Source: an uncultured bacterium (GTDB lineage: Bacteria; Vulcanimicrobiota; Xenobia; Xenobiales; Xenobiaceae). Taken from it: a stretch of DNA of 64,000 nucleotides. The position numbers and the translations under genes were made by a program. The DNA lies in contig CAKTUZ010000012.1 in NCBI GenBank assembly GCA_934621605.1, positions 12,074 to 76,073 of the forward strand, in the 5' to 3' direction. Position 1 is the first letter of the stretch. Each line of letters starts with the position of its first letter. The notes below the pieces were generated by a model. That model was not told the origin of the DNA. It did not search any database and saw only the letters and a program-made list of their open reading frames with translations. This document shows, piece by piece, positions 42,576 to 56,814 of the stretch.

Positions 42576-43388
42576 TTACTTCCCACTTTGTTGTTCAAAT
42601 TGAACTGCATTTAAACGTCTAAGGAAAATATCCAAAAAGACGGCTAAATTTTTAGCAGCTCTACTGCTATTTTTAGCCAAATGGCATAAGCGTGAAATTA
42701 AAACCGGACGCTTAAAAACTTCAAAAATAACCTTGTTTTTATTGACCTGGCCGCTTTCTTCATCGGAAAAATCATTAAAATTTAAGGGCATAGCAAAAGA
42801 AGCTTCATCACTAACCACTTTAATGGCATTCCAAGGAAGATTAAATTTTTGAGCAGCGGCAGCTATAGAACTAGCTTCCATATCTACCACAGCAGCTCCA
42901 AAGCGGCTGAGTAAAGCGGTCTTTTCTTTTACTGTAACAATCACTTTAGCACTGGTCAAAGCCTTAACAAGTTCAATATTAGAGCCGGGTATAGCTTTCT
43001 CAGCGTTGAGTCTGTATAAAATTTCCAAGCCTAAACCTGAGGGTTGAGAGTAAACTGTATTGAGCAAAGCTTCCGCACCTACTACTTGACCGGCTTTTAA
43101 GCCAGCCGAAAGGGCTCCGCAAAAGCCAGCTGAAACCAGCATAGAAGGCTTAAAGCGTCTAATAACCAGTTGAGCCGATTCTAAAGCGCGTTCACGTCCC
43201 ATACCACATAAACAAACTAAAGCATTTTGAGAACGTATATGCCAAACTACCGGCGATGAAGTTGCCAAGCCATCTAATTGTATACCGCTATCCCAATCAA
43301 TAGAGTAAATATTCAAGAGAGGCTTTACCTCTTCGGGAGTAGCCATAAAAACAGCGACTGATTGCTTTTGTTTTCCCATAACTATCAC
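42576..43388 (-). CDS. PNP/UDP-family phosphorylase, HpnG-like (hopanoid-associated phosphorylase).
   Basis: Nucleoside phosphorylase fold (LVCLCGMGRERA...SAGFCGAL). Adjacent to hpnA and near hpnH. Confidence 0.6.
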   Translation of the reverse strand: MIVMGKQKQSVAVFMATPEEVKPLLNIYSIDWDSGIQLDGLATSSPVVWHIRSQNALVCLCGMGRERALESAQLVIRRFKPSMLVSAGFCGALSAGLKAGQVVGAEALLNTVYSQPSGLGLEILYRLNAEKAIPGSNIELVKALTSAKVIVTVKEKTALLSRFGAAVVDMEASSIAAAAQKFNLPWNAIKVVSDEASFAMPLNFNDFSDEESGQVNKNKVIFEVFKRPVLISRLCHLAKNSSRAAKNLAVFLDIFLRRLNAVQFEQQSGK

Positions 43389-43401
43389 CTAAAAGCCCTT
43401 T

Positions 43402-44412
43402 CTAGCCTCTTTTAATATTAAGCTTACGCTTAACATAGCCATTGTCAATAAACCACTGCACAGCTCTCTCTAAAGCCAAACGAATAGGCCGTGGCTCGTA
43501 CCCCAGCTCTTTGTAAGCTTTGCGCCAACTGAAGTACATAAGTTTATGAGCCATCTTTACACCTTCCAAAGGTACACTGGGCTCCTTATGAATTTTTGTG
43601 CATATAAAAGTATCTATAGAACCAACAAGATAAGCAAACCACAGGGGTAATTCAACCTGTGGAGCCTTTAAGCCAGTAATATCAGCCAATTCTAAAAGAA
43701 TTTGCTGTAAAGTCATATCCCAGCCGCCTAAAATATAGCGTTGACCCGATTTGCCCTTTTCGGCAGCTAAAATATGACCACGACATACATCTTCCACATC
43801 TACTAAGTTGAGACCGGTATTTACATAAGCTGGCATTTTACCATTTAAGAAACGAGTGATAATTTTACCGGTATCGGTAGGCTTTATATCGCGATCTCCA
43901 ATAGGTGTCGAAGGATTGACAATAACGATATCTTGTCCTTCTTCGGCAGCCTTCAAGGCCACATGCTCAGCTAAAAATTTAGAGCGTTTATAATGACCAA
44001 TCATATCTTCCAAAGCAACCGGCACATCTTCATTGCCTGGACCACCGTTTTTGGGTAAGCCTACGGCAGCAACCGAAGAAGTAACAACTATACGATCTAC
44101 TCCGCCATCTCGACAAGCTCGCAAAATATTTTCCGTACCTTTAACGTTACTTTCGTACAGTTCGTCAGTATTTTCCGCCCAAAGCCTATAATCAGCTGCA
44201 CAATGAAAAACTAAACTACAACCACTTACTGCCGAGCGCAAGGACTCAAAATCACGCAAATCGCCCTGCACATATTCGACATCTAAGCCGTCTAAATTGG
44301 CTAAATTGGAAGAAGGACGTACTAAAGCACGTACTTTTCTTCCCGATTGTAATAATTGGCGCACTAAATGGCTGCCTATAAAACCGGTTCCCCCCGTTAC
44401 AAATACACACAT
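43402..44412 (-). CDS. hpnA: Hopanoid-associated NAD-dependent sugar epimerase HpnA.
   Basis: VTGGTGFIGSHLVRQL Rossmann motif, then RALVRPSSNLANLDGLDVEYVQGDLRD...FHCAADYRLW, matching the HpnA consensus. Confidence 0.75.
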   Translation of the reverse strand: MCVFVTGGTGFIGSHLVRQLLQSGRKVRALVRPSSNLANLDGLDVEYVQGDLRDFESLRSAVSGCSLVFHCAADYRLWAENTDELYESNVKGTENILRACRDGGVDRIVVTSSVAAVGLPKNGGPGNEDVPVALEDMIGHYKRSKFLAEHVALKAAEEGQDIVIVNPSTPIGDRDIKPTDTGKIITRFLNGKMPAYVNTGLNLVDVEDVCRGHILAAEKGKSGQRYILGGWDMTLQQILLELADITGLKAPQVELPLWFAYLVGSIDTFICTKIHKEPSVPLEGVKMAHKLMYFSWRKAYKELGYEPRPIRLALERAVQWFIDNGYVKRKLNIKRG

Positions 44413-44545: not shown

Positions 44546-46057
44546 TTATTCTACAATAATTTTAGTTTCAGCATTATAAGTTGGTAATTTATCGATTTTA
44601 CCTACACTTAAAGTATAATTACCGACTTTAGTACCAATCTTTAATACATAACTTCTGTTATCGGAATTAAGCGATAAATTCGGACAATCAGGTTCGTTAG
44701 GTTTAACATAAGACGCAGGATACGTGGGAATTACATTTTCATCAAGTAAAATATAGTCGCAAACATTAGAACTCAGGTCGCCACTCGCACGTAAGTAATT
44801 ACCTATAATTCGAATATTGTCCAGTACTTTTCCAGCATTGAATTTAAATTCGTCAATATCTTCATATTTTTTAGTTTTACCACCTTTTACACCTAAAATT
44901 ACATTGGCATAGGCTTTGACAAGCTTAACATCGATACTGCCGGTTTTGGCTTCAGCCTCGCCTTCGAGCTTGACACTGGCCCCAACTCTGGTAGTTTGAC
45001 TGTCAGCTAAACTATTGAAAGTTACTATATTACCCTTAACAGAAGCATCTTTATAATCGCAAGTAATGGTAGCTTTATCGGTCAGATCCTGAGGATCTGG
45101 CTGAGGGCCTTTGCTAGTATCATCAGTATAAATACCCAAAACTTTAAATTGCTCTTGTCCAACAGCCATAGTTGTATCATCAGAAGATTTATCTACTTTG
45201 TCGGCTCCCAAATTTACATCGGGAACAATAACTTCGCAGCTAGATATTTTTCCCGACTCGGAAAGAGTACTATAAACGGGCTGCAAAGAAATACCTTCGA
45301 TCGTATTATCGGAAATAAAAATAGGATCGAAATTAAAATCTATACTAAAATCCTTTACCGGCAAAGTAGCAGTAAAGTTGTATTTACCATAATTATTAGT
45401 TTCATAGTGACCGGAAGTAGTACTATATTCAAAACTCTCGTCGTCGGCAGATTTTACGGCCTTCAAATTAACTTCTTGACCATCATTTTTAAAAGTTACA
45501 AAATCGGTAACATAATAAGCTTTGTTAGTGGCAGCCAAAGTGAGCATTGTTTCCAATTTGAGTTCTTGGCCTTTGGCAATAACGCTCTTATTTACCGAGC
45601 AACCGACTATATCTGCGTTTTTAAATTCAACAATCTCGGGATTCTTAACGTCGGCATTATAGTAAGAGTTCCAAGAAAGATCATTAAGACCGATATTTAC
45701 AATATTATTGTCCTTGTCATAATAAGCGGCGACTACAGTTTTAGCTGTAATAGGCACTCCATTGACAGTCAAAGAGGCTTGATCTACTTTTTGGCTCTGA
45801 TGAGGTACTTCATAACTCTTGGTAAAAAAGACTGTGGAGTTTTCAGCATTGCGGAAGCTATATTTAACAGAAGTAATCGTATTAGGAATTTCGGTACGTG
45901 AAGCAGCTTGCAAAGAATACTCGAAAACGACACTTCCGCGCTTAACGCTTTGAGAGGAACCGTTGTCGTCATTGTCACTGCACCCGGCCACCAATAAACC
46001 TGCCGTTACTACGGCTGCGGTAAAGCAAAAAATATTTTTTGTGTTCTTTTTAAGCAT
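44546..46057 (-). CDS. Lipoprotein, function unknown.
   Basis: Lipobox LVAGCSDN. 503 aa, beta-rich, Thr/Asn-rich. Confidence 0.6.
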   Translation of the reverse strand: MLKKNTKNIFCFTAAVVTAGLLVAGCSDNDDNGSSQSVKRGSVVFEYSLQAASRTEIPNTITSVKYSFRNAENSTVFFTKSYEVPHQSQKVDQASLTVNGVPITAKTVVAAYYDKDNNIVNIGLNDLSWNSYYNADVKNPEIVEFKNADIVGCSVNKSVIAKGQELKLETMLTLAATNKAYYVTDFVTFKNDGQEVNLKAVKSADDESFEYSTTSGHYETNNYGKYNFTATLPVKDFSIDFNFDPIFISDNTIEGISLQPVYSTLSESGKISSCEVIVPDVNLGADKVDKSSDDTTMAVGQEQFKVLGIYTDDTSKGPQPDPQDLTDKATITCDYKDASVKGNIVTFNSLADSQTTRVGASVKLEGEAEAKTGSIDVKLVKAYANVILGVKGGKTKKYEDIDEFKFNAGKVLDNIRIIGNYLRASGDLSSNVCDYILLDENVIPTYPASYVKPNEPDCPNLSLNSDNRSYVLKIGTKVGNYTLSVGKIDKLPTYNAETKIIVE

Positions 46058-46200: not shown

Positions 46201-46782
46201 CTAAATTTCGTCAGAAAGTACCCATTCCGGCACGGGTGGAAGTTGAAAATTTTCAATAGCGGGAATAACCTCTTCAGGTTTATTTACAACTGTAAAGTAA
46301 CGACTGTAAGGTAAAGCTAATACTCCTTCTTGGTGAGTACGTTCCATAAATTTAATTAAATCGTCGAAAAAGCCATCGCTATTCAATACGACAATAGGCT
46401 TGCGCACTTTGCCTAAAGAACTTAAGCAAGCTACTTCAAAAAATTCGTCCAAAGTTCCGACTCCGCCTGGCAAAATTACGAAAGCATCTGATTTTTCAAT
46501 CATCATAGCTTTGCGCTCGGCCATATCGGAAACAATGTAGCTCTCATCTAGTTTAGCAGCACTAATTTCCCTATTGGTTAAAAACTTAGGCATAATACCG
46601 ATAATTTTGCCTCCACAAGCGGACACACGGCCAGCTACCACCCACATCAAACCAACACTTGCTCCACCATAGACTAACTTGTGGCCGCCTCTTACCAAAC
46701 AATCGGCAAAGGCTGCGCAATCGCGACTGATTTGCTCGCTTTTTGGCATAGCGGAAGCACAAAATACACAAATATTGAACAT
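46201..46782 (-). CDS. LOG family protein (cytokinin riboside 5'-monophosphate phosphoribohydrolase or Rossmann-fold nucleotide-binding protein).
   Basis: The conserved PGGxGTxxE-like motif reads PGGVGTLDEFFE here. The start was moved to MFNICVFCAS (ATG at 46782). Confidence 0.8.
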   Translation of the reverse strand: MFNICVFCASAMPKSEQISRDCAAFADCLVRGGHKLVYGGASVGLMWVVAGRVSACGGKIIGIMPKFLTNREISAAKLDESYIVSDMAERKAMMIEKSDAFVILPGGVGTLDEFFEVACLSSLGKVRKPIVVLNSDGFFDDLIKFMERTHQEGVLALPYSRYFTVVNKPEEVIPAIENFQLPPVPEWVLSDEI

Positions 46783-46909
46783 TACCAGCACCTCTGTTAG
46801 GCTAGACAGGATGTTAGTATAAATCAAGCTTAAGTTGTGAAATACCTGCCGCCTAATTTTATCGTAAGGTAGCGAAGGAAAAATAAATACTGTGAAAGGA
46901 CAAATCAAA

Positions 46910-47473
46910 ATGGTCGAGGCCACGAATATAAGGGAAGTTTCTTTTACTGAATTAAAGCATATTTACGATAAATACTCACGCCAAACATTCCCTTCGGAAG
47001 AGCTAGAGCCTTGGAATAAGGTTGCCAGGCTATGCAAAGAGAAACGCTATCTGGGCTGGGGACTTTATGATGCAAAAGAAGAACTTTGCTGTTATGCTTT
47101 CTTTAGCGTTACTCCCAATGGACTTTACTTATTAAATATGCTGGAAACTATACCAGAAAAACGCGGTTCCGGCTATGGACAAAAAATGTTGGCTTATTTG
47201 AAAGAGCACTACGCTCCCCAGCCTCTTTTTATGGAAGTAGAAGCACCAGAATTAGCTGCCAATGAAGAAGAACGCATCATAAGAGAACGACGCATGAAGT
47301 TTTATCACAGGTTGGAAGCTTACGATACAACCTTGCGTTCTTCCTTAGGCGGCATAGTTATGCATATTTTGGCAGTAAACGGCAACTTAGCGGAATTGGA
47401 TCTACACAAGGTTCACAATGAATTAAGCCTACATTACCCTACAATTTACAATCCAACTTCACATATGCTGTAG
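46910..47473 (+). CDS. GNAT family N-acetyltransferase.
   Basis: ...ETIPEKRGSGYGQKMLAYL motif A. The start is probably MVEATNI. Confidence 0.7.
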   Translation: MVEATNIREVSFTELKHIYDKYSRQTFPSEELEPWNKVARLCKEKRYLGWGLYDAKEELCCYAFFSVTPNGLYLLNMLETIPEKRGSGYGQKMLAYLKEHYAPQPLFMEVEAPELAANEEERIIRERRMKFYHRLEAYDTTLRSSLGGIVMHILAVNGNLAELDLHKVHNELSLHYPTIYNPTSHML

Positions 47474-47479
47474 TTTTAA

Positions 47480-47778
47480 TAGCACCTTATTACCTACAAG
47501 CAAAAGCGTCAGACTAGCTGCATCAAGCACAGTAGTCGGCGCTTTTTAATTTATTACAAATTGTTTAACAAGCCAACTTAAGTTTAAATTCTAACCTAAA
47601 AATATGCTTACTAAAATTGACTCTTACTAAAACTTAAAGCTACAATTAAGACGTTTTATTGCTAAGTATTTTAGCTGCAGCACATAAGACAAAAATGGTT
47701 AACACCTTAAACTATGGCAACCGAGCCAAGTTTACAGCTAACTCGGTTGGCAAATTTTACACCCGGAGGTAATTAACT
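47480..47778 (+). repeat. Leader repeat copy 1 (~300 bp, ~90% identical to 49060..49376), with terminator-like hairpin, promoter and pre-RBS hairpin.
   Basis: caaaagcgtcagact...ttgactcttactaaaacttaaagctacaat...ggcaaccgagcc...ctcggttggc...acccggaggt. Confidence 0.8.
47617..47646 (+). promoter_or_regulatory. Sigma70-like promoter TTGACT-N18-TACAAT.
   Basis: -35 at 47617-47622 and -10 at 47641-47646. Conserved in the second leader copy (TTGACT-N18-TATATT, ~49200). Confidence 0.45.
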
Positions 47779-48438
47779 GTGTGTGACTATTTTGATGTTA
47801 TAGTAAAGCCATACAAAAAAGAACGTATGGCTTTTACTAAGCATGGCAATAAGCTTAAGCTCATTAAGCTCAAGAAAGGACAGCGCTACCCTACTTCATT
47901 GGTCTATGAGCACTCATATGGAATGGGAATAGTTCGGTTAGCCGATCCGCGTAAATACCATATCACAGATTTTGCTGCTAAGGTTACTTTTGGTCAAGAG
48001 GGATGTACAAATCGTTGCGATTTTTGTAACTCATGGGAATCTTGTGAAGATTTTTTCTATGCAGTGACAAGCCTTCAACGAGAAGAATCTGGATTACCTT
48101 ATATTATTTACTTCTGTAGTTCCGGTAAAGACCGTAAAGTAATTCTAAACCCACCTCATGTACGAGTGGATGTAGGTTACTTAAGGCTGCTTATACCAGT
48201 AATACTCTCCCCAACAAACCCATATATTCCCAAGCATATTTGGGATAGAGTATTACACAAGAAACCTATTAAATGCTTTTCCGCCGTAAAAAAGCTTCTC
48301 GTTGACAACTACAAAAAAATAATGAACATTTGGAACCAAGGAGGAGAAAGTAGCTTTTGGTTCGGAGACGACGGAATAGCTATAGAAGAGTATTGCAAAA
48401 AGCACAAGCTAGAATTTATCCAATGGAAGGAGGACTGA
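47779..48438 (+). CDS. Uncharacterised family member A (219 aa, GTG start).
   Basis: GGAGGT lies 8 nt upstream. Conserved blocks LVYEHSYGMGI, CEDFFYA, SPTNPYIPK and a C-terminal block VKKLLVDNYKKIMNIWN. Confidence 0.6.
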   Translation: MCDYFDVIVKPYKKERMAFTKHGNKLKLIKLKKGQRYPTSLVYEHSYGMGIVRLADPRKYHITDFAAKVTFGQEGCTNRCDFCNSWESCEDFFYAVTSLQREESGLPYIIYFCSSGKDRKVILNPPHVRVDVGYLRLLIPVILSPTNPYIPKHIWDRVLHKKPIKCFSAVKKLLVDNYKKIMNIWNQGGESSFWFGDDGIAIEEYCKKHKLEFIQWKED

Positions 48439-48440
48439 CA

Positions 48441-48950
48441 ATGTCAGACTATTATTCGGAAGACTGTTACACAGAAGACGAAGACAAGTTTAATCTTCGC
48501 GAATGGATGGACGAATTTAATCGCATTAGAGAATTAAACAAGAGTACGTACGAATACCCTATTGGTTGGGGTGTTCTAGTAACGCAAGACGATTGCATAA
48601 ATGAGCAGAGCCGTCTGGATATTTTATCAGAAGTGGCTTTGAAAGCCAGCAATCCAACACTTCCATATGAATTATGGTTTGATGATGCCGGAAAAACTCG
48701 TTACACTGGGCACCACGCCATGAGAGTTAAATTTTATTCAGTAGATCTTCATGATTGGATACCAATCATTATGACCGATGATGAAAAGATCGGTAAAAGA
48801 GTATACATAAAGCTACCAAACGTAAAAGAGCCAAGTCATTTTGGCAAAGTTAAAAAATTTTTGATTAAAAATTATGACTTGGTATACGGTTGGTGGATCG
48901 GAAGATATTCAGCTAAGCAATTAGTCTCCATACTAGAAAAACAAACTTAA
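48441..48950 (+). CDS. Uncharacterised family member B (169 aa), a distant paralog of A.
   Basis: GGAGGA then ATG 2 nt after A's stop. Shares STYEYPIGWGVLV and a C-terminal block VKKFLIKNYDLVYGWW with A. Confidence 0.55.
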   Translation: MSDYYSEDCYTEDEDKFNLREWMDEFNRIRELNKSTYEYPIGWGVLVTQDDCINEQSRLDILSEVALKASNPTLPYELWFDDAGKTRYTGHHAMRVKFYSVDLHDWIPIIMTDDEKIGKRVYIKLPNVKEPSHFGKVKKFLIKNYDLVYGWWIGRYSAKQLVSILEKQT

Positions 48951-49059
48951 AGATAACAAAAGATAATAAACAATAAATTGTACACTCAATAAATAGAAGA
49001 GCACAAAAGGCGCCGGGCAGCTGCTATGCTGCTGAGGTGCCTTTTTGCATACATTATGA

Positions 49060-49376
49060 TCCCGTAGATTTTTAGCTACAAAAGCGTCAGACTGGCTGCC
49101 ATCAGGTACAGCAGCAGGCGCTTTTTAATTTATTACAAATTGTTTAACAAGCCAACTTAAGTCTAAATTCTAACCTAAAAATATGCTTCCTAAAATTGAC
49201 TCTTGCTAGAATTTAAAGCTATATTTAAGACGTTTTATTGCCAAGCATTTTAGCTACTGTACATAAGACAAAAATGGTTAACATCTTAAACTATGGCAAC
49301 CTAGCTAAATTTTACAGCTAACTCGGTTGGCAAATTTTACACCCGGAGGTGATTACTATTAGCGAAACAAACGTTG
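49060..49376 (+). repeat. Leader repeat copy 2.
   Basis: Near-identical to 47480..47778, including the promoter and the GGAGGT. Confidence 0.8.
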
Positions 49377-49476
49377 ATGAAAAAAGCGGTACAAGAAAGA
49401 GCGCCTAACTTTCACTAAGCATGGCAATAAGCTTAAGCTCATTAAGCTTAAGAAAGGACAGCGCTACCCTCCTTCA

Positions 49477-50073
49477 TTGGTATATGAGCACCCATATGGA
49501 ATAGGAATAATCAGCTTAAGGGATCAAAAATATTACCGTTCACATAAATTCAAAACCCCAGGACATTTTGACGGCAAGGGATGCTTACTTTATTATTGTA
49601 GCGATTGCTGGTATTGGGATGCGTGTGAAGATTTTTTCTATGCCATGGAAAGATTTGATGAAGAATTATCAGGACTGCCATATCCAGGACTACCCTATAT
49701 TATTGACATGAATTCTTTTGGCAAAGATCGTCATACAGGGCCGAATCCTCCCAACTTAAGAGTAATTGTTGGAAACTTAAGCATACCAGTTATAATATCC
49801 CCTACTAATCCGTATATCCCTAAAAAAATTTTAGTTACAGTTCTACACGGAAAACTGTTCCCTCATTTCAATGTCATCAGAAAAATCATTATTGATAATT
49901 ACGATGACCTAATGGCGCACTGGAACAGCCCCCTTGACTACAACATATTACGTCCATTAGCTAAATACTGCAAAAAGCATAGGCAAGAGCTGGAACTAAT
50001 GCAGAAAGGTGAAGGTGAATTTTTAGAAAAAAGTACGCAAAGAATAAAAAGAAATAATCAGCTTAACATATAA
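49477..50073 (+). CDS. Uncharacterised family member C (198 aa). The N-terminal region is disrupted relative to A, and the only in-frame start is TTG.
   Basis: In-frame upstream codons still encode KKRYKKERLTFTKHGNKLKLIKLKKGQRYPPSL (homologous to A's N-terminus) but are preceded by a TGA. The ATG at 49377 is out of frame. Confidence 0.5.
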   Translation: MVYEHPYGIGIISLRDQKYYRSHKFKTPGHFDGKGCLLYYCSDCWYWDACEDFFYAMERFDEELSGLPYPGLPYIIDMNSFGKDRHTGPNPPNLRVIVGNLSIPVIISPTNPYIPKKILVTVLHGKLFPHFNVIRKIIIDNYDDLMAHWNSPLDYNILRPLAKYCKKHRQELELMQKGEGEFLEKSTQRIKRNNQLNI

Positions 50074-50202
50074 AGAATTGTATATTCAACGATAAACTAT
50101 ATCAAAAAAGGCGCCCCAGCAATCAAGCTGAGGCACCTTTCTGTACAAGTTCGAACCTAAACATCAAACTAGCGATATGAAGCCCCGAACTACTCTATAA
50201 GC

Positions 50203-50757
50203 TTAGCGCCAAGAATCATAGTCGCGATCTTTGTTACGACGTTCGCGTTTATTGTTGCGACGACCACCGGAGCTTGGCGGCGGATACATATCGACGAAGC
50301 TGGACATATCGAAGTCTGCGTCAAAAGAAGAAGCTGACGGGGTATAACCATTATTGGAACGAGGAGCGCTAGGACGACTATTATTACTACTGCCGTAGCT
50401 GCGGGAACCGCCGGGACGCGAAACACCACCGCCGTTGTTAGCACGATAACAGTCGGAGCAATAGACAGGACGACCGTTAGTAGGTTGGAAAGGAACTTGC
50501 GTTTCCTTACCACATTCTGCGCACACAGCGCTATACATCTGGCGAGGGGGACGCGCATTGGCTGTTGCAGCGCTATTTTCTACACCACCATTGCTGCGAG
50601 GGGCTCTGTTTCCGCCCTGACCGGCTTTACGTGCGGCCCTGCAGCTGGGGCAGCGGCGAGGCTCACTCGTAAATCCTTGGGACGCATAAAACTCTTGTTC
50701 ACCATCAGTAAACACAAACTCAGCGCCGCACTCGACGCATTTTAGGGACTTATCCAC
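50203..50757 (-). CDS. Protein with two zf-trcl-type CxxC-x17-CxxC zinc ribbons and an Arg/Gly/Ser/Asn-rich low-complexity tail.
   Basis: KCVECGAEFVFTDGEQEFYASQGFTSEPRRCPSCR and VCAECGKETQVPFQPTNGRPVYCSDCY. Confidence 0.7.
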   Translation of the reverse strand: MDKSLKCVECGAEFVFTDGEQEFYASQGFTSEPRRCPSCRAARKAGQGGNRAPRSNGGVENSAATANARPPRQMYSAVCAECGKETQVPFQPTNGRPVYCSDCYRANNGGGVSRPGGSRSYGSSNNSRPSAPRSNNGYTPSASSFDADFDMSSFVDMYPPPSSGGRRNNKRERRNKDRDYDSWR

Positions 50758-54690: not shown

Positions 54691-56814
54691 TTATTTGCGT
54701 CCCTGACGGCGAGCTGTACCTACAGCATCATAAATCATCATACGCAACTGATCAGGAACCATTTCCGGCCCCTTATCCTGCATAGCCTTACCCAAAGCCA
54801 AAGCTAAACCTGGCTTAGAAGCAACCCTAATGGCCCGCTTTATTAAATCCTTGGATTTTTCCCCCTTTTTACTACCTTGCGGAGCTGGCCCGGCTATCTT
54901 ACGGAAGACATCTTTATAATCGTATTCACTCTCCCAGAAGCAATTCTCAATATCTATATCTTTAAGTACAGTAACTTTTCCCAAACCAACAGCCTCAGCG
55001 TAAGGCCTAGCCAATTTACCGTAAGTATGACCGGCTTTATCGCCGTCAGCCAAAAGATGCCAGCTAATACCAAGTTCGTTAGCTAAATTAGCCAAAGGTG
55101 CCAAGCCGCACTGAGCAAATTCGACCAGCTCTATACCCTCGCTCCATAGATCGAACCCTAAAACCCTGGCAATTTCCGGCAACAACCAACACTCGGTTTC
55201 TCCCTCAACCAGAAGCCAAAAACGCATAAATAAGGCGGCTCCGCGCCTAATACGCAAATGGTAAGCTATGCGGCGCAAGTCGTTAATGTGAATATGACCA
55301 GAATTTACTTTATAGACACTAGCAATACCTTCGGAAGAACGAACCATACGACGAATACCAGTTAATGGCACAGCCGAAAGCAAATCTGAATTATTGGTAG
55401 AAAGCAAGCGTTGCGGTGACATGCGGTCGATTAAACTCCAAACCGAAGTAAGCATAAGTGGATGCAGATAAGCCTCGGGATCTTCTACAGAAAGCAAAGG
55501 ATAATAATCACCATTGCCGTCATTGGCTTCAGAGAAACCTTGAGACTGGGCCTTAAAAAACGAATCGGCAAAAGCCAACATAGCTAAACTTCTAGCACCA
55601 GTACCACGTAAGAGAGCACTAAAACGCTCGTAATCATCGCGCTCATGGCCATCACTGTCTAAAAGAGGATTGAGTGTGGACATTGGCGCTTGCAATCTCT
55701 CTTTAATAATTCGACCATCACCTTTATGAGCAGAGAGAATCTGAGTATAGCGATCTTGGCCGCGCTTTGACTCTTCATCCTCGGAGAAGTCACTAGCCTC
55801 ATCAATAGCAGAATCAATACGCTCAGTCTCATTGTGAGAATTGTGCACCAAGATTTTTTCCAAATTGTCCAAGTTACTTTCCAACTCGTCGCGATGAGCG
55901 GCAATAAACTCCTGAGCAGAACATTCAGCGCTCTCGGTCAATTCAGAATAAGCCTGACTAAAAAGTGAATCAACTTTATCCTGAGCCGGACGCTGCTCCT
56001 GACCGCTTCTGATAGGCGGAAGCAAAGCACCAGGACGAATACGCAAGAAAGGACATACAGTTTTTATAGTCTTCAGATATTCCAAAGAATCAGCCAACTC
56101 AATTTTTTTATGTGCAGCATCCTCAAAATGGTACTGAGTAAAAACCTGATTGCCCTCGCGCTTAGCTTCTACACAAAGATAAAAATTAAGAACTCTAGCC
56201 CTATGACCACCGCGCATAAGTAAGTCAGTCATAAAATGATCATCTCTAAATTTTTGCAAACTACTGTAAGAAGCGCAAGCCCTTTCCTCTTGCAAGGCTA
56301 TAGCCGCCTCGTCTTGAGCAGAAAATCCATCAGCCTCAGCTGTATGTTTATAAAGTTCACTAGCTTCATCGGCTCGCAAAATCCGAGAATTATCTTCCTC
56401 AGTTTCGGTATATTCGGAAACTAAATGTCTATCTGCAGCTTCAGTCTTATTGCCGGAAAAGCTGCCTCCAAAACCAATAACTATGCGCATCTCCTTAGTT
56501 TGCAAATCTTCAGAAGGAGCAGCCGCATAATAAAAAGTCTCACGATTGCGGTGAAAGTCGGAAGCACTTATATCAAAGCCATCCTTAGGCACATTACGCC
56601 CCAGAACAGCTTCCAAAGCGTTCAAAATACTAGACTTGCCGCAGCCATTTTCCCCGATCAGTACGGTGACGCGACTTTGGAAAGAAATATCAACCTTTTT
56701 TATGGAACGGAAGTTCTCTATAAGTAAACTACGTACAAACACACCTACGTTTTTCGCGCTCTTTAAACTATTTGCCTTCCCCTGAGCATGGAGGAAAACG
56801 TAGAACCTAAACAA
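54691..56814 (-). CDS. OLD-family ATP-dependent endonuclease (N-terminal ABC-type ATPase + C-terminal TOPRIM).
   Basis: Walker A GENGCGKSS and C-terminal TOPRIM LLVEGETECWLLPE...LLADGDKAG. The N-terminal 25 aa of the track ORF may be read-through. Confidence 0.75.
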   Translation of the reverse strand: MFRFYVFLHAQGKANSLKSAKNVGVFVRSLLIENFRSIKKVDISFQSRVTVLIGENGCGKSSILNALEAVLGRNVPKDGFDISASDFHRNRETFYYAAAPSEDLQTKEMRIVIGFGGSFSGNKTEAADRHLVSEYTETEEDNSRILRADEASELYKHTAEADGFSAQDEAAIALQEERACASYSSLQKFRDDHFMTDLLMRGGHRARVLNFYLCVEAKREGNQVFTQYHFEDAAHKKIELADSLEYLKTIKTVCPFLRIRPGALLPPIRSGQEQRPAQDKVDSLFSQAYSELTESAECSAQEFIAAHRDELESNLDNLEKILVHNSHNETERIDSAIDEASDFSEDEESKRGQDRYTQILSAHKGDGRIIKERLQAPMSTLNPLLDSDGHERDDYERFSALLRGTGARSLAMLAFADSFFKAQSQGFSEANDGNGDYYPLLSVEDPEAYLHPLMLTSVWSLIDRMSPQRLLSTNNSDLLSAVPLTGIRRMVRSSEGIASVYKVNSGHIHINDLRRIAYHLRIRRGAALFMRFWLLVEGETECWLLPEIARVLGFDLWSEGIELVEFAQCGLAPLANLANELGISWHLLADGDKAGHTYGKLARPYAEAVGLGKVTVLKDIDIENCFWESEYDYKDVFRKIAGPAPQGSKKGEKSKDLIKRAIRVASKPGLALALGKAMQDKGPEMVPDQLRMMIYDAVGTARRQGRK

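Follow-up and report, generated by a model that had tools for sequence, protein, structure and literature searches.

The locus analysed here lies in a 64,000-nt stretch (hereafter, the window) of contig CAKTUZ010000012.1 and is an array of self-promoted two-gene cassettes that occupies one fixed chromosomal site in a human-gut bacterium of the UBP9 lineage, with a copy number that varies between strains. Each cassette comprises a leader of ~235 nt, an A-type gene (219–234 amino acids, aa), a B-type gene (148–191 aa) that starts a few bases from the end of the A-type gene or overlaps that end, and an intrinsic terminator. The window contains one intact cassette (genes A and B) and one decayed cassette (copy C). 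An earlier annotation made from the letters alone (the original prediction) had taken the unit to be three tandem paralogs; the unit is instead the bicistronic A+B cassette. From the left border to the right, the array consists of the following features, for which ORF denotes an open reading frame:

46892..47473, + strand: upstream flanking gene, weakly GNAT-like (Acetyltransf_1 at E 0.006, below the Pfam cut-off), the left border
47545..47778, + strand: leader copy 1, ~235 nt (duplication, promoter-like site, predicted fold, conservation)
47779-48438, + strand: gene A, 219 aa, GTG start (ORF list, profile match)
48441-48950, + strand: gene B, 169 aa, ATG start 2 nt past the A stop, with GGAAGGAGG upstream (ORF list; P0005 is 100% identical)
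49005-49047, + strand: terminator T2, end of cassette 1 (−30.7 kcal/mol, z −4.3; U run after the hairpin)
49124..49348, + strand: leader copy 2 (duplication, promoter-like site)
49349..50073, + strand: copy C, the decayed cassette (aligned to the intact ortholog L001:8001-9117)
50107-50140, + strand: terminator T2', end of cassette 2 (−17.9 kcal/mol, z −4.5; U run after the hairpin)
50203..50757, − strand: downstream flanking gene with a zf_Tbcl treble-clef zinc finger, the constant right border (domain annotation)

Among related contigs (L numbers), several of which come from human-gut metagenomes, Hadza samples included, the array has the same borders in all that reach far enough, with the weakly GNAT-like gene on the left (193 aa as listed in the window, 186 aa in relatives; found again in L001, L006, L016, L017 and L018) and the zf_Tbcl gene on the right. 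Between these borders, L001 carries four cassettes (219+192, 234+191, 234 alone and 228+148 aa), L016 and L017 also carry four, L006 carries three, and L018 and L007 carry two; L020 and L024, both of which end inside the array, carry at least two and at least three, respectively. In total, four A-type and nine B-type protein clusters were found among 5.8 billion non-redundant proteins, with one cluster member named as from 'bacterium UBP9_UBA11836'. That the family is polymorphic, as had been proposed from the window alone, is borne out by this variation of copy number and allele content between related genomes.

At the protein level, the three products are paralogous, as first supposed, C being taken as 49381-50073: A and C align over 217 aa (50% identity, E 3e-57), A and B over 111 aa (27% identity, E 3e-7), and B and C over 82 aa (29% identity, E 1e-8), the ORFs lie where they had been placed, and in a joint alignment the SPTNPYIPK, CEDFFYA, ...V[KR]K..[IV][DK]NY...W and VYEH/TYEYP blocks fall in register. 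A family profile run against the six-frame translation of the window matched the A, B and C ORFs only. Gene A encodes a Lys-rich conserved N-terminal block followed by a DUF4160-like C-terminal domain with an NPPHVRV motif, and gene B encodes a helical N-terminal region followed by a DUF4160-like domain (residues ~64-169) with a GHHAMRVK motif; in an AlphaFold2 (AF2) model of B this domain has a predicted local distance difference test score (pLDDT) of 70-92 and is built of strands, then helices. Four cysteines (C76, C80, C83 and C89) are invariant across the A-types, and since their spacing varies between types (C-x3-C-x2-C-x5-C in A, C-x4-C in C), we go no further than to call them a possible metal site. 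Downstream of the B genes, terminator T2 is conserved at other loci.

Evolutionarily, A and B share one layout, in that their N-terminal ~50 residues are conserved and their common C-terminal domain is highly diverged between cassette types. Between A and C, high nucleotide identity extends ~150 nt into the coding sequence and drops to ~60% beyond; inside codons 12-52, synonymous divergence (dS) is 0.36 and nonsynonymous divergence (dN) 0.07, and outside them synonymous sites are saturated and dN is about 0.45-0.62. Likewise, the B types differ by a dS of 0.36 and a dN of 0.11 over codons 1-50, and by a dS of 2.0 and a dN of 0.60 over the remainder. These patterns indicate that each gene consists of a conserved N-terminal module joined to a highly diverged C-terminal domain. 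The suggestion that the cassette was recently duplicated has to be given up, since the dS between A and C is saturated outside the 5' block and other genomes contain, for either copy, an ortholog that is almost identical.

Scans of A, B and C against Pfam, PHROGs, PADLOC and NCBIfam returned nothing meaningful: none of the three matched a PADLOC protein model at E<=1, none matched DUF4160 (PF13711, gathering score 23 bits) at E<=1, and no well-characterised housekeeping family, the outcome that the original prediction had named as counting against it, was matched by any of them. A sequence-profile search of the PDB gave one spurious match only, to the N-terminal helix of PKA (E ~0.8). When 1.84 billion representatives were searched with an A+B profile, 166 matches were obtained at E<=1e-3, most of them proteins of 100-140 aa, with the consensus EMAN..sGLPY.IW.DS.GK.R...HN.PRIKV...lIPVsI..P.I......F..IK.FI..NY..L.KHWN.E; 0 of 10 relatives tested exceeded a curated cut-off in Pfam, PHROGs or NCBIfam. 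By these searches, the C-terminal domain shared by A and B is an uncurated family. Its motif pattern resembles that of DUF4160, a resemblance that was then tested by Pfam and hhalign. In the hhalign comparison, HN.PRIKV pairs with HNPPHFHV and the ...HWN helix with ...anW, and gene A of the window carries NPPHVRV at the position of the DUF4160 HNPPHFHV. The link to DUF4160 is weak but recurrent, and probably a superfamily-level similarity, as judged from profiles and motifs, and not membership.

Functionally, DUF4160 is the toxin of the validated DhiTA pair, in which the leading gene encodes the toxin and has an overlap with the gene behind it (PMC8198452), and a predicted effector domain of the Menshen NsnC proteins (PMC12065111); it has one validated toxin role, for which these two papers give no mechanism. 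The cassette domain appears to resemble DUF4160 and DhiT (DhiTA being the DUF4160/DUF2442 pair of Dickeya dadantii) in being a small domain of beta-strands, then helix, in carrying HN.PRIKV or NPPHVRV where the alignment has HNPPHFHV of DUF4160, in its C-terminal ...L..HW(N) helix and in its recurrent sub-threshold Pfam matches, and A, in the manner of DhiTA, is the first gene of a tight two-gene operon (PMC8198452). It differs in its length of ~110 aa, with an extra N-terminal 'EMAN..GLPY.IW.DS.GK.R' segment, and in falling below the Pfam cut-off. Moreover, A and B have added lineage-specific N-terminal modules, the partner B is a paralog of the same domain and not DUF2442, and several cassettes, each behind a long conserved leader, make up an array of variable content.

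The remote relatives of the cassette proteins (P0029-P0207, an uncurated family of small proteins of ~100-140 aa from metagenome contigs, most of which are phage-like) contain the same domain, with E-values down to 6e-17 for the A2 profile and down to 5e-58 for the A4 profile, which itself contains some of these relatives. In the eight contigs examined, their surroundings look phage-derived: one relative lies beside genes for gyrase/topoisomerase subunits, RNA ligase, RNase H and HNH proteins, a second contig (L012) carries Amidase_3, an AcrVA2-like gene and PhoH, others carry an NAD-dependent ligase and giant ORFs, and one relative is found in a 70.6-kb viral contig of IMG/VR. As in the cassettes, there is a tendency to tandem paralogs and fused repeats: in several contigs the domain recurs in tandem, L010 having two neighbouring genes and L014 five ORFs in a row, and in some relatives a single chain comprises it two or three times. 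The runs at L014:2867-5001 and L013:5983-7193 reach up to five consecutive ORFs with six domains, fused two-domain proteins included, and adjoin an NAD-dependent DNA ligase and ORFs of >1,400 aa. The relatives differ from the cassettes in being single-domain or domain-repeat proteins among phage-type genes, without the N-terminal modules of A and B and without the leader, whereas the UBP9 cassettes are chromosomal, with housekeeping genes on either side of their fixed site. The viral contigs of IMG/VR contain no member of the A-type family, and a tblastn search with one remote relative against GenBank phages and PLSDB plasmids gave no match. Of the candidate roles first offered, that of a phage-derived module survives in the form of a phage-associated and distantly toxin-like domain, given the phage-like contigs and the sub-threshold DUF4160 matches. 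At L012:9823-10378, we also noted an 8-nt overlap between the relative P0180 (125 aa) and a 61-aa gene of the MazE/AbrB antitoxin type upstream of it. The two lie beside the AcrVA2-like gene and PhoH, and may represent a true case of toxin and antitoxin in this domain family.

Comparison with the flanking genes points to exchange of cassettes between lineages. Between the window and L001 or L016, the flanking genes (LOG, GNAT-like, zinc finger, M28 peptidase and Fpg) share 76-89% nucleotide identity, with a dS of 0.42-1.68 and a dN/dS of 0.05-0.12. Cassette genes are far closer at synonymous sites, with a dS of 0.054 (95% nucleotide identity) between A and L001 cassette 1, 0.157 between C and L001 cassette 4, and 0.083 between B and its L016 counterpart, and their dN/dS is mostly 0.2-0.9, reaching 2.2 in one B1 comparison with few sites (the comparison of the window B with the first L001 B gene, L001c1, was left out of the dN/dS estimates because the L001 gene lies in another frame). 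The low dS and higher dN/dS of the cassette genes relative to their flanks suggest that alleles have been exchanged between lineages or otherwise kept alike, under relaxed or diversifying selection. These values bear on the possibility that A and B are non-toxic accessory proteins (for example, phage-acquired nucleic-acid-binding or regulatory factors) with a cellular role outside conflict, the array varying by unequal crossing-over. A dN/dS mostly below 1 and a fixed site among housekeeping genes would suit such a role, as would the conserved Lys-rich blocks at the N-terminus and the four-Cys motif, which could bind nucleic acid or metal, but dN/dS is several-fold above that of the flanking genes, diverged lineages share alleles, pseudogenisation is frequent, the relatives are phage-associated and tandemly expanded, and a gene for an OLD-family nuclease lies 4.6 kb away, and we regard this explanation as rather improbable.

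Cassettes are gained, lost, truncated and reassorted among lineages. In L006, one and the same 234-aa A allele is followed first by a B1 of 182 aa and then, in the neighbouring cassette, by a B2 of 191 aa; in other genomes several B genes are truncated or chimeric, P0010 and P0011 being chimeric B proteins; and an intact A without B forms the last cassette in L007, L016, L017, L018 and L024. A further protein, P0012 (93 aa, from a 766-bp contig), joins a B-type N-terminus to an unrelated, secretion-sorting-like C-terminal tail (…TFPTGLYIVRVADKSIKILKK) and is probably an assembly chimera. In their architecture, these arrays recall the orphan toxin-immunity arrays of contact-dependent inhibition (CDI) and Rhs systems, whose two-gene modules lie in tandem: a conserved block of 5' homology leads into a variable domain, another small gene follows, and homologous recombination reshuffles modules that strains have in common. 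The UBP9 array likewise consists of tandem two-gene modules, each with a conserved 5' block followed by a variable domain, that are shuffled and strain-shared, but it is without a large secreted delivery protein, a secretion system or a known toxin/immunity domain, and each of its cassettes is a complete pair of mutually paralogous genes with its own promoter. The locus is a variant on known kinds, namely DUF4160-like toxin-type domains and recombining paralog arrays, with a protein family and a leader that are uncurated.

The same reassortment weighs on a rival interpretation, in which the cassettes are classical type II toxin-antitoxin modules, A being a DUF4160-type toxin and B a paralog-derived cognate antitoxin, and the array an addiction or abortive-infection stack. 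Here, the two genes form a bicistronic unit with little space between them or an overlap, the order is that of DhiTA, with the toxin first and an overlap (PMC8198452), the NPPH-x-R-V of the window A is close to the NPPHFHV of DUF4160, and a phage relative directly follows and overlaps a MazE-type antitoxin gene. Yet B has the same domain as A rather than DUF2442 or a DNA-binding antitoxin fold, intact A genes without B are common as last cassettes, a single A allele occurs with two different B types, no operator-like sign of autoregulation is seen, and neither gene matches any PADLOC model, and we consider classical modules of this kind unlikely. The toxin/immunity-like pair among the roles first offered may still apply, although the A genes that lack a B and the free reassortment of types count against it.

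Copy C is best read, from its alignment to the intact ortholog, as the remnant of a decayed cassette and not as a functional gene initiated at TTG. Its longest surviving ORF, at 49477-50073, is listed with a TTG start, and the original prediction had accordingly held that C is reachable by such a start only and that its N-terminus is scrambled. The ortholog at L001:8001-9117 places the ancestral start at a GTG within GGAGGTG (window 49349), which makes C a frameshifted and 3'-deleted remnant, and the apparent scrambling is an artefact of a 1-nt deletion. Relative to the ortholog, one nucleotide has been lost from the A-run at 49380-49386 (GGAAAAACGCGG to GAAAAAAGCGG, window 49379-49389), shifting the frame after codon 11, and the frame from 49349 closes after 19 codons at a stop at 49406-49408. 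A second lesion, a 389-nt deletion with its junction near 50018, takes out almost the whole of the 148-aa B-type partner and joins C to the last ~17 codons of that lost gene, which accounts for the '...KRNNQLNI' tail of C. A C remnant of 142 aa is on record as P0019 (sources NCBI and ENA), and the frameshifted sequence is present also in L030, an independently assembled contig, which suggests a real mutation over an assembly error, with the same strain possibly sampled twice. The frameshift created a run A-AAA-AAG (49380-49386) at which a −1 slip or an extra transcribed A would restore an ortholog-length protein (…VDEKKRYKKER…). Programmed frameshifting or transcriptional slippage at this A6 run was judged unlikely, as the run is short, there is no evident stimulatory element and the B partner is gone; slippage here is probably irrelevant.

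The leader is the second conserved component of the cassette. Its elements, with SD for Shine-Dalgarno sequence and UTR for untranslated region, and those immediately around it are:

47502-47546, + strand: terminator-like hairpin T1, AAAAGCG...CGCTTTTT (−19.3 kcal/mol, z −4.1)
47561-47571 and 47575-47584, + strand: short palindromes TTGTTTAACAA and AACTTAAGTT, respectively, in leader copy 1 (sequence reading)
47617-47646, + strand: promoter-like site TTGACT-18-TACAAT of leader copy 1 (−35 at 47617-47622, −10 at 47641-47646)
47653-47690, + strand: predicted helix P1 of the leader 5' UTR (fold prediction)
47703-47708, + strand: anti-SD, CACCTT (predicted pairing)
47718-47725 and 47742-47749, + strand: hairpin P3, CAACCGAG with CTCGGTTG (predicted fold)
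47765-47769, + strand: SD GGAGG of leader copy 1
49196-49225, + strand: promoter-like site TTGACT-18-TATATT of leader copy 2 (promoter scan)

The duplication of a promoter-bearing leader, as originally described, is confirmed: the two copies differ at 17 of 232 aligned columns (~93% identity), both have the promoter-like site, which is sigma-70-like, and by segment 47521-47733 is 90% identical to 49100-49312 and 47728-47775 is 96% identical to 49308-49355. Region-wide, promoter-like sites are not enriched (12 found, 8.9 expected), and the case for the two leader promoters is therefore made by their conservation and not by the scan, the −35 TTGACT being invariant in 11 of 11 aligned leader copies. 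Altogether, 25 distinct and conserved leader copies were recovered from other genomes, which supports the view of a cassette with its own regulatory leader and goes against the lack of leader conservation that the original prediction had named as refuting it; from TTTTTAATTTATTACAAATTG to GGAGGTG (~235 nt), 7-15% of positions are changed relative to leader A in the copies that were quantified. When metagenome contigs were scanned with a leader motif, seven further loci were added, and in 8 of 8 matches that include the SD-proximal motif an A-type N-terminus followed. Rfam 15 covariance models run over 47300-50300 gave chance-level matches only (E>2), none of them inside the leader.

Compared with its surroundings, the leader evolves slowly: leader divergence is 7% between the A and C copies of the window, against a proportion of synonymous differences (pS) of 0.29 (dS 0.36) in the adjacent conserved codons, and 12% between the A copy and L001 cassette 2, against a pS of 0.54 (dS 0.94), the codon samples being small (34-41 codons). 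That the leader is slower than neighbouring synonymous sites argues for constraint on the nucleotide sequence itself, and not for homogenisation alone. This result, together with the state of copy C, bears on whether the array could be a neutral, decaying phage remnant or a trivial segmental duplication without function, its leaders alike through recent duplication or gene conversion. Copy C is indeed a pseudogene, B genes elsewhere are damaged, and the lowered dS (0.36) in the 5' coding block suggests some gene conversion. Nevertheless, the array keeps the same site across lineages whose flanking genes have a dS of 0.4-1.7, most A and B genes are intact with a dN/dS below 1, divergence in the leader is several-fold below that at the synonymous sites next to it, the A/C pair is old (saturated dS), and no phage structural or integrase genes lie near the array, which together make functionless decay very unlikely.

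Structurally, RNAalifold predicts three helices in the 5' UTR (~125 nt), namely P1 near the 5' end, a long-range helix, and an enclosed CAACCGAG/CUCGGUUG hairpin. In the long-range helix, CACCUU (47703-47708) and UGGU pair with GAGGUG and ACUA, covering the SD and the ancestral GTG start. In the predicted structure 95.7% of cells are paired, and the variation is mostly C-to-U with G-U pairs kept; the single-sequence fold has a z of −2.3, and in leader copy 2 the P3 hairpin is weakened through a G-to-T change. A leader fold that sequesters the SD and start is plausible in this model. An upstream ORF in the leader (ATG 47714, 20 codons to the SD/start region) was considered and rejected as coding: it lacks an SD, and in other leader variants an indel of 4 nt shifts its frame, so that the peptide is not conserved.

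The original prediction had counted the terminator-like hairpin T1 as part of the leader. A second copy stands ahead of leader 2 (~49080-49125; −17.8 kcal/mol, z −2.05), but T1 is missing from many leader copies in other genomes and hence does not belong to the constant elements of the cassette; its probable role is to terminate transcription of the gene upstream. With T2, T1 supplies the imperfect inverted repeats between cassettes that, at a fixed site with a variable cassette number, might suggest a site-specific cassette system, integron-like or otherwise, that recombines at the inter-cassette hairpins. We give this idea very little credence and rejected an integron-type array, as no integrase or recombinase is listed near the array in the domain annotations of related loci, the cassettes are mutually homologous and each has its own promoter-like site, the hairpins resemble ordinary intrinsic terminators (T1 being dispensable), and the junctions fit homologous recombination between conserved segments.

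Considering these features jointly, we posit with moderate confidence that the array is a fast-evolving, toxin-like conflict locus of autonomous A+B cassettes that carry a DUF4160-like domain, recombine at conserved segments and are limited in their expression by the leader. Crossovers by homologous recombination would fall in the conserved segments (the leader with the 5' end of A, the 3' end of A with the 5' end of B, and the terminator) and would thereby reshuffle the variable domains, while the anti-SD of the leader (CACCUU) would pair with the SD and start codon and hold expression low until some signal opens the leader. A and B would act jointly, probably via pairing of their homologous domains; phage relatives in which several domains are fused suggest that the domain works in pairs. 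Together, A and B would form a toxin-like conflict module that serves in phage defence or exclusion, or in addiction. Within the pair, A may be the more effector-like partner, because the window A keeps NPPH-x-R-V (compare NPPHFHV in DUF4160) and all A-types have the four-Cys module. A bolder version, which we think doubtful, is that this is an undescribed kind of chromosomal conflict locus, a recombining library of self-promoted cassettes that each encode a heteromeric pair of paralogous DUF4160-like proteins of phage origin. An SD-sequestering leader would silence them until infection or stress gives a signal, and diverged lineages of gut bacteria would exchange whole cassettes so as to keep up with phages.

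Several results weigh against a toxin-like conflict locus of this design. The sub-threshold PF13711 matches occur in 10 of 44 family members, with a best E of 0.0018 and none over the Pfam cut-off, and the hhalign comparison of A4 with two DUF4160-type sequences (probability 41.6%, E 2.7e-4, 55 columns) used a thin template, although a Pfam scan confirmed both of its sequences as DUF4160 (E 4e-26 and 1e-23). No DUF2442-type antitoxin is present, the gene after A being B, an A paralog without a Pfam match, and the orphan intact A genes and the A/B reassortment argue against a strict cognate toxin-antitoxin pair. The structure model of A is poor (pLDDT 50), and a fold search with the B model against the PDB and BFVD gave no match. 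As for the leader, the P3 hairpin is mismatched in some copies, and covariation amounts to one double-sided change, with no measure above shuffled controls among sequences that are too alike. Lastly, the low between-lineage dS could come partly from selection on the nucleotide sequence and not from transfer.

Beyond the array, the nearest defence-type gene encodes a 707-aa OLD-family nuclease (DUF2813, AAA_15 and an OLD-like TOPRIM; window 54691-56814, − strand), downstream of the array and kept near it in related contigs, where it lends weak contextual support to a conflict role; a radical-SAM gene between it and fpg in the window is missing in L001-L005. On the left, the start of the GNAT-like ORF (GTG 46892) overlaps that of a divergent LOG-family ORF (46201-46923), as listed, and since the orthologs of both are called shorter (186 and 182-193 aa), the true starts probably lie further in, with a short divergent promoter region between them. 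Adjoining the LOG-family gene, also in related contigs, is a 503-aa ORF (window 44546-46057, − strand) with a lipoprotein-like N-terminus (…LLVAGCSDN) and without a Pfam match. Further upstream (window 42576-44412, − strand; L018:538-3579), an NAD-dependent epimerase, a PNP_UDP_1 nucleosidase-like gene and a family-2 glycosyltransferase stand in a row in related contigs, an arrangement reminiscent of hopanoid-associated (hpn) genes.

For the family, these analyses link an uncurated and apparently phage-associated group of proteins (the 166 profile matches) to DUF4160, and the ~235-nt leader, found solely ahead of A-type genes, is a candidate new cis-regulatory element. Paired and orphan genes, intact and decayed cassettes, and conserved modules and variable domains offer natural contrasts to guide experiments. 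For the organism, an uncultured human-gut lineage, a hot spot of cassette turnover with between-lineage exchange is what population genetics would lead one to expect where genes serve defence or addiction.

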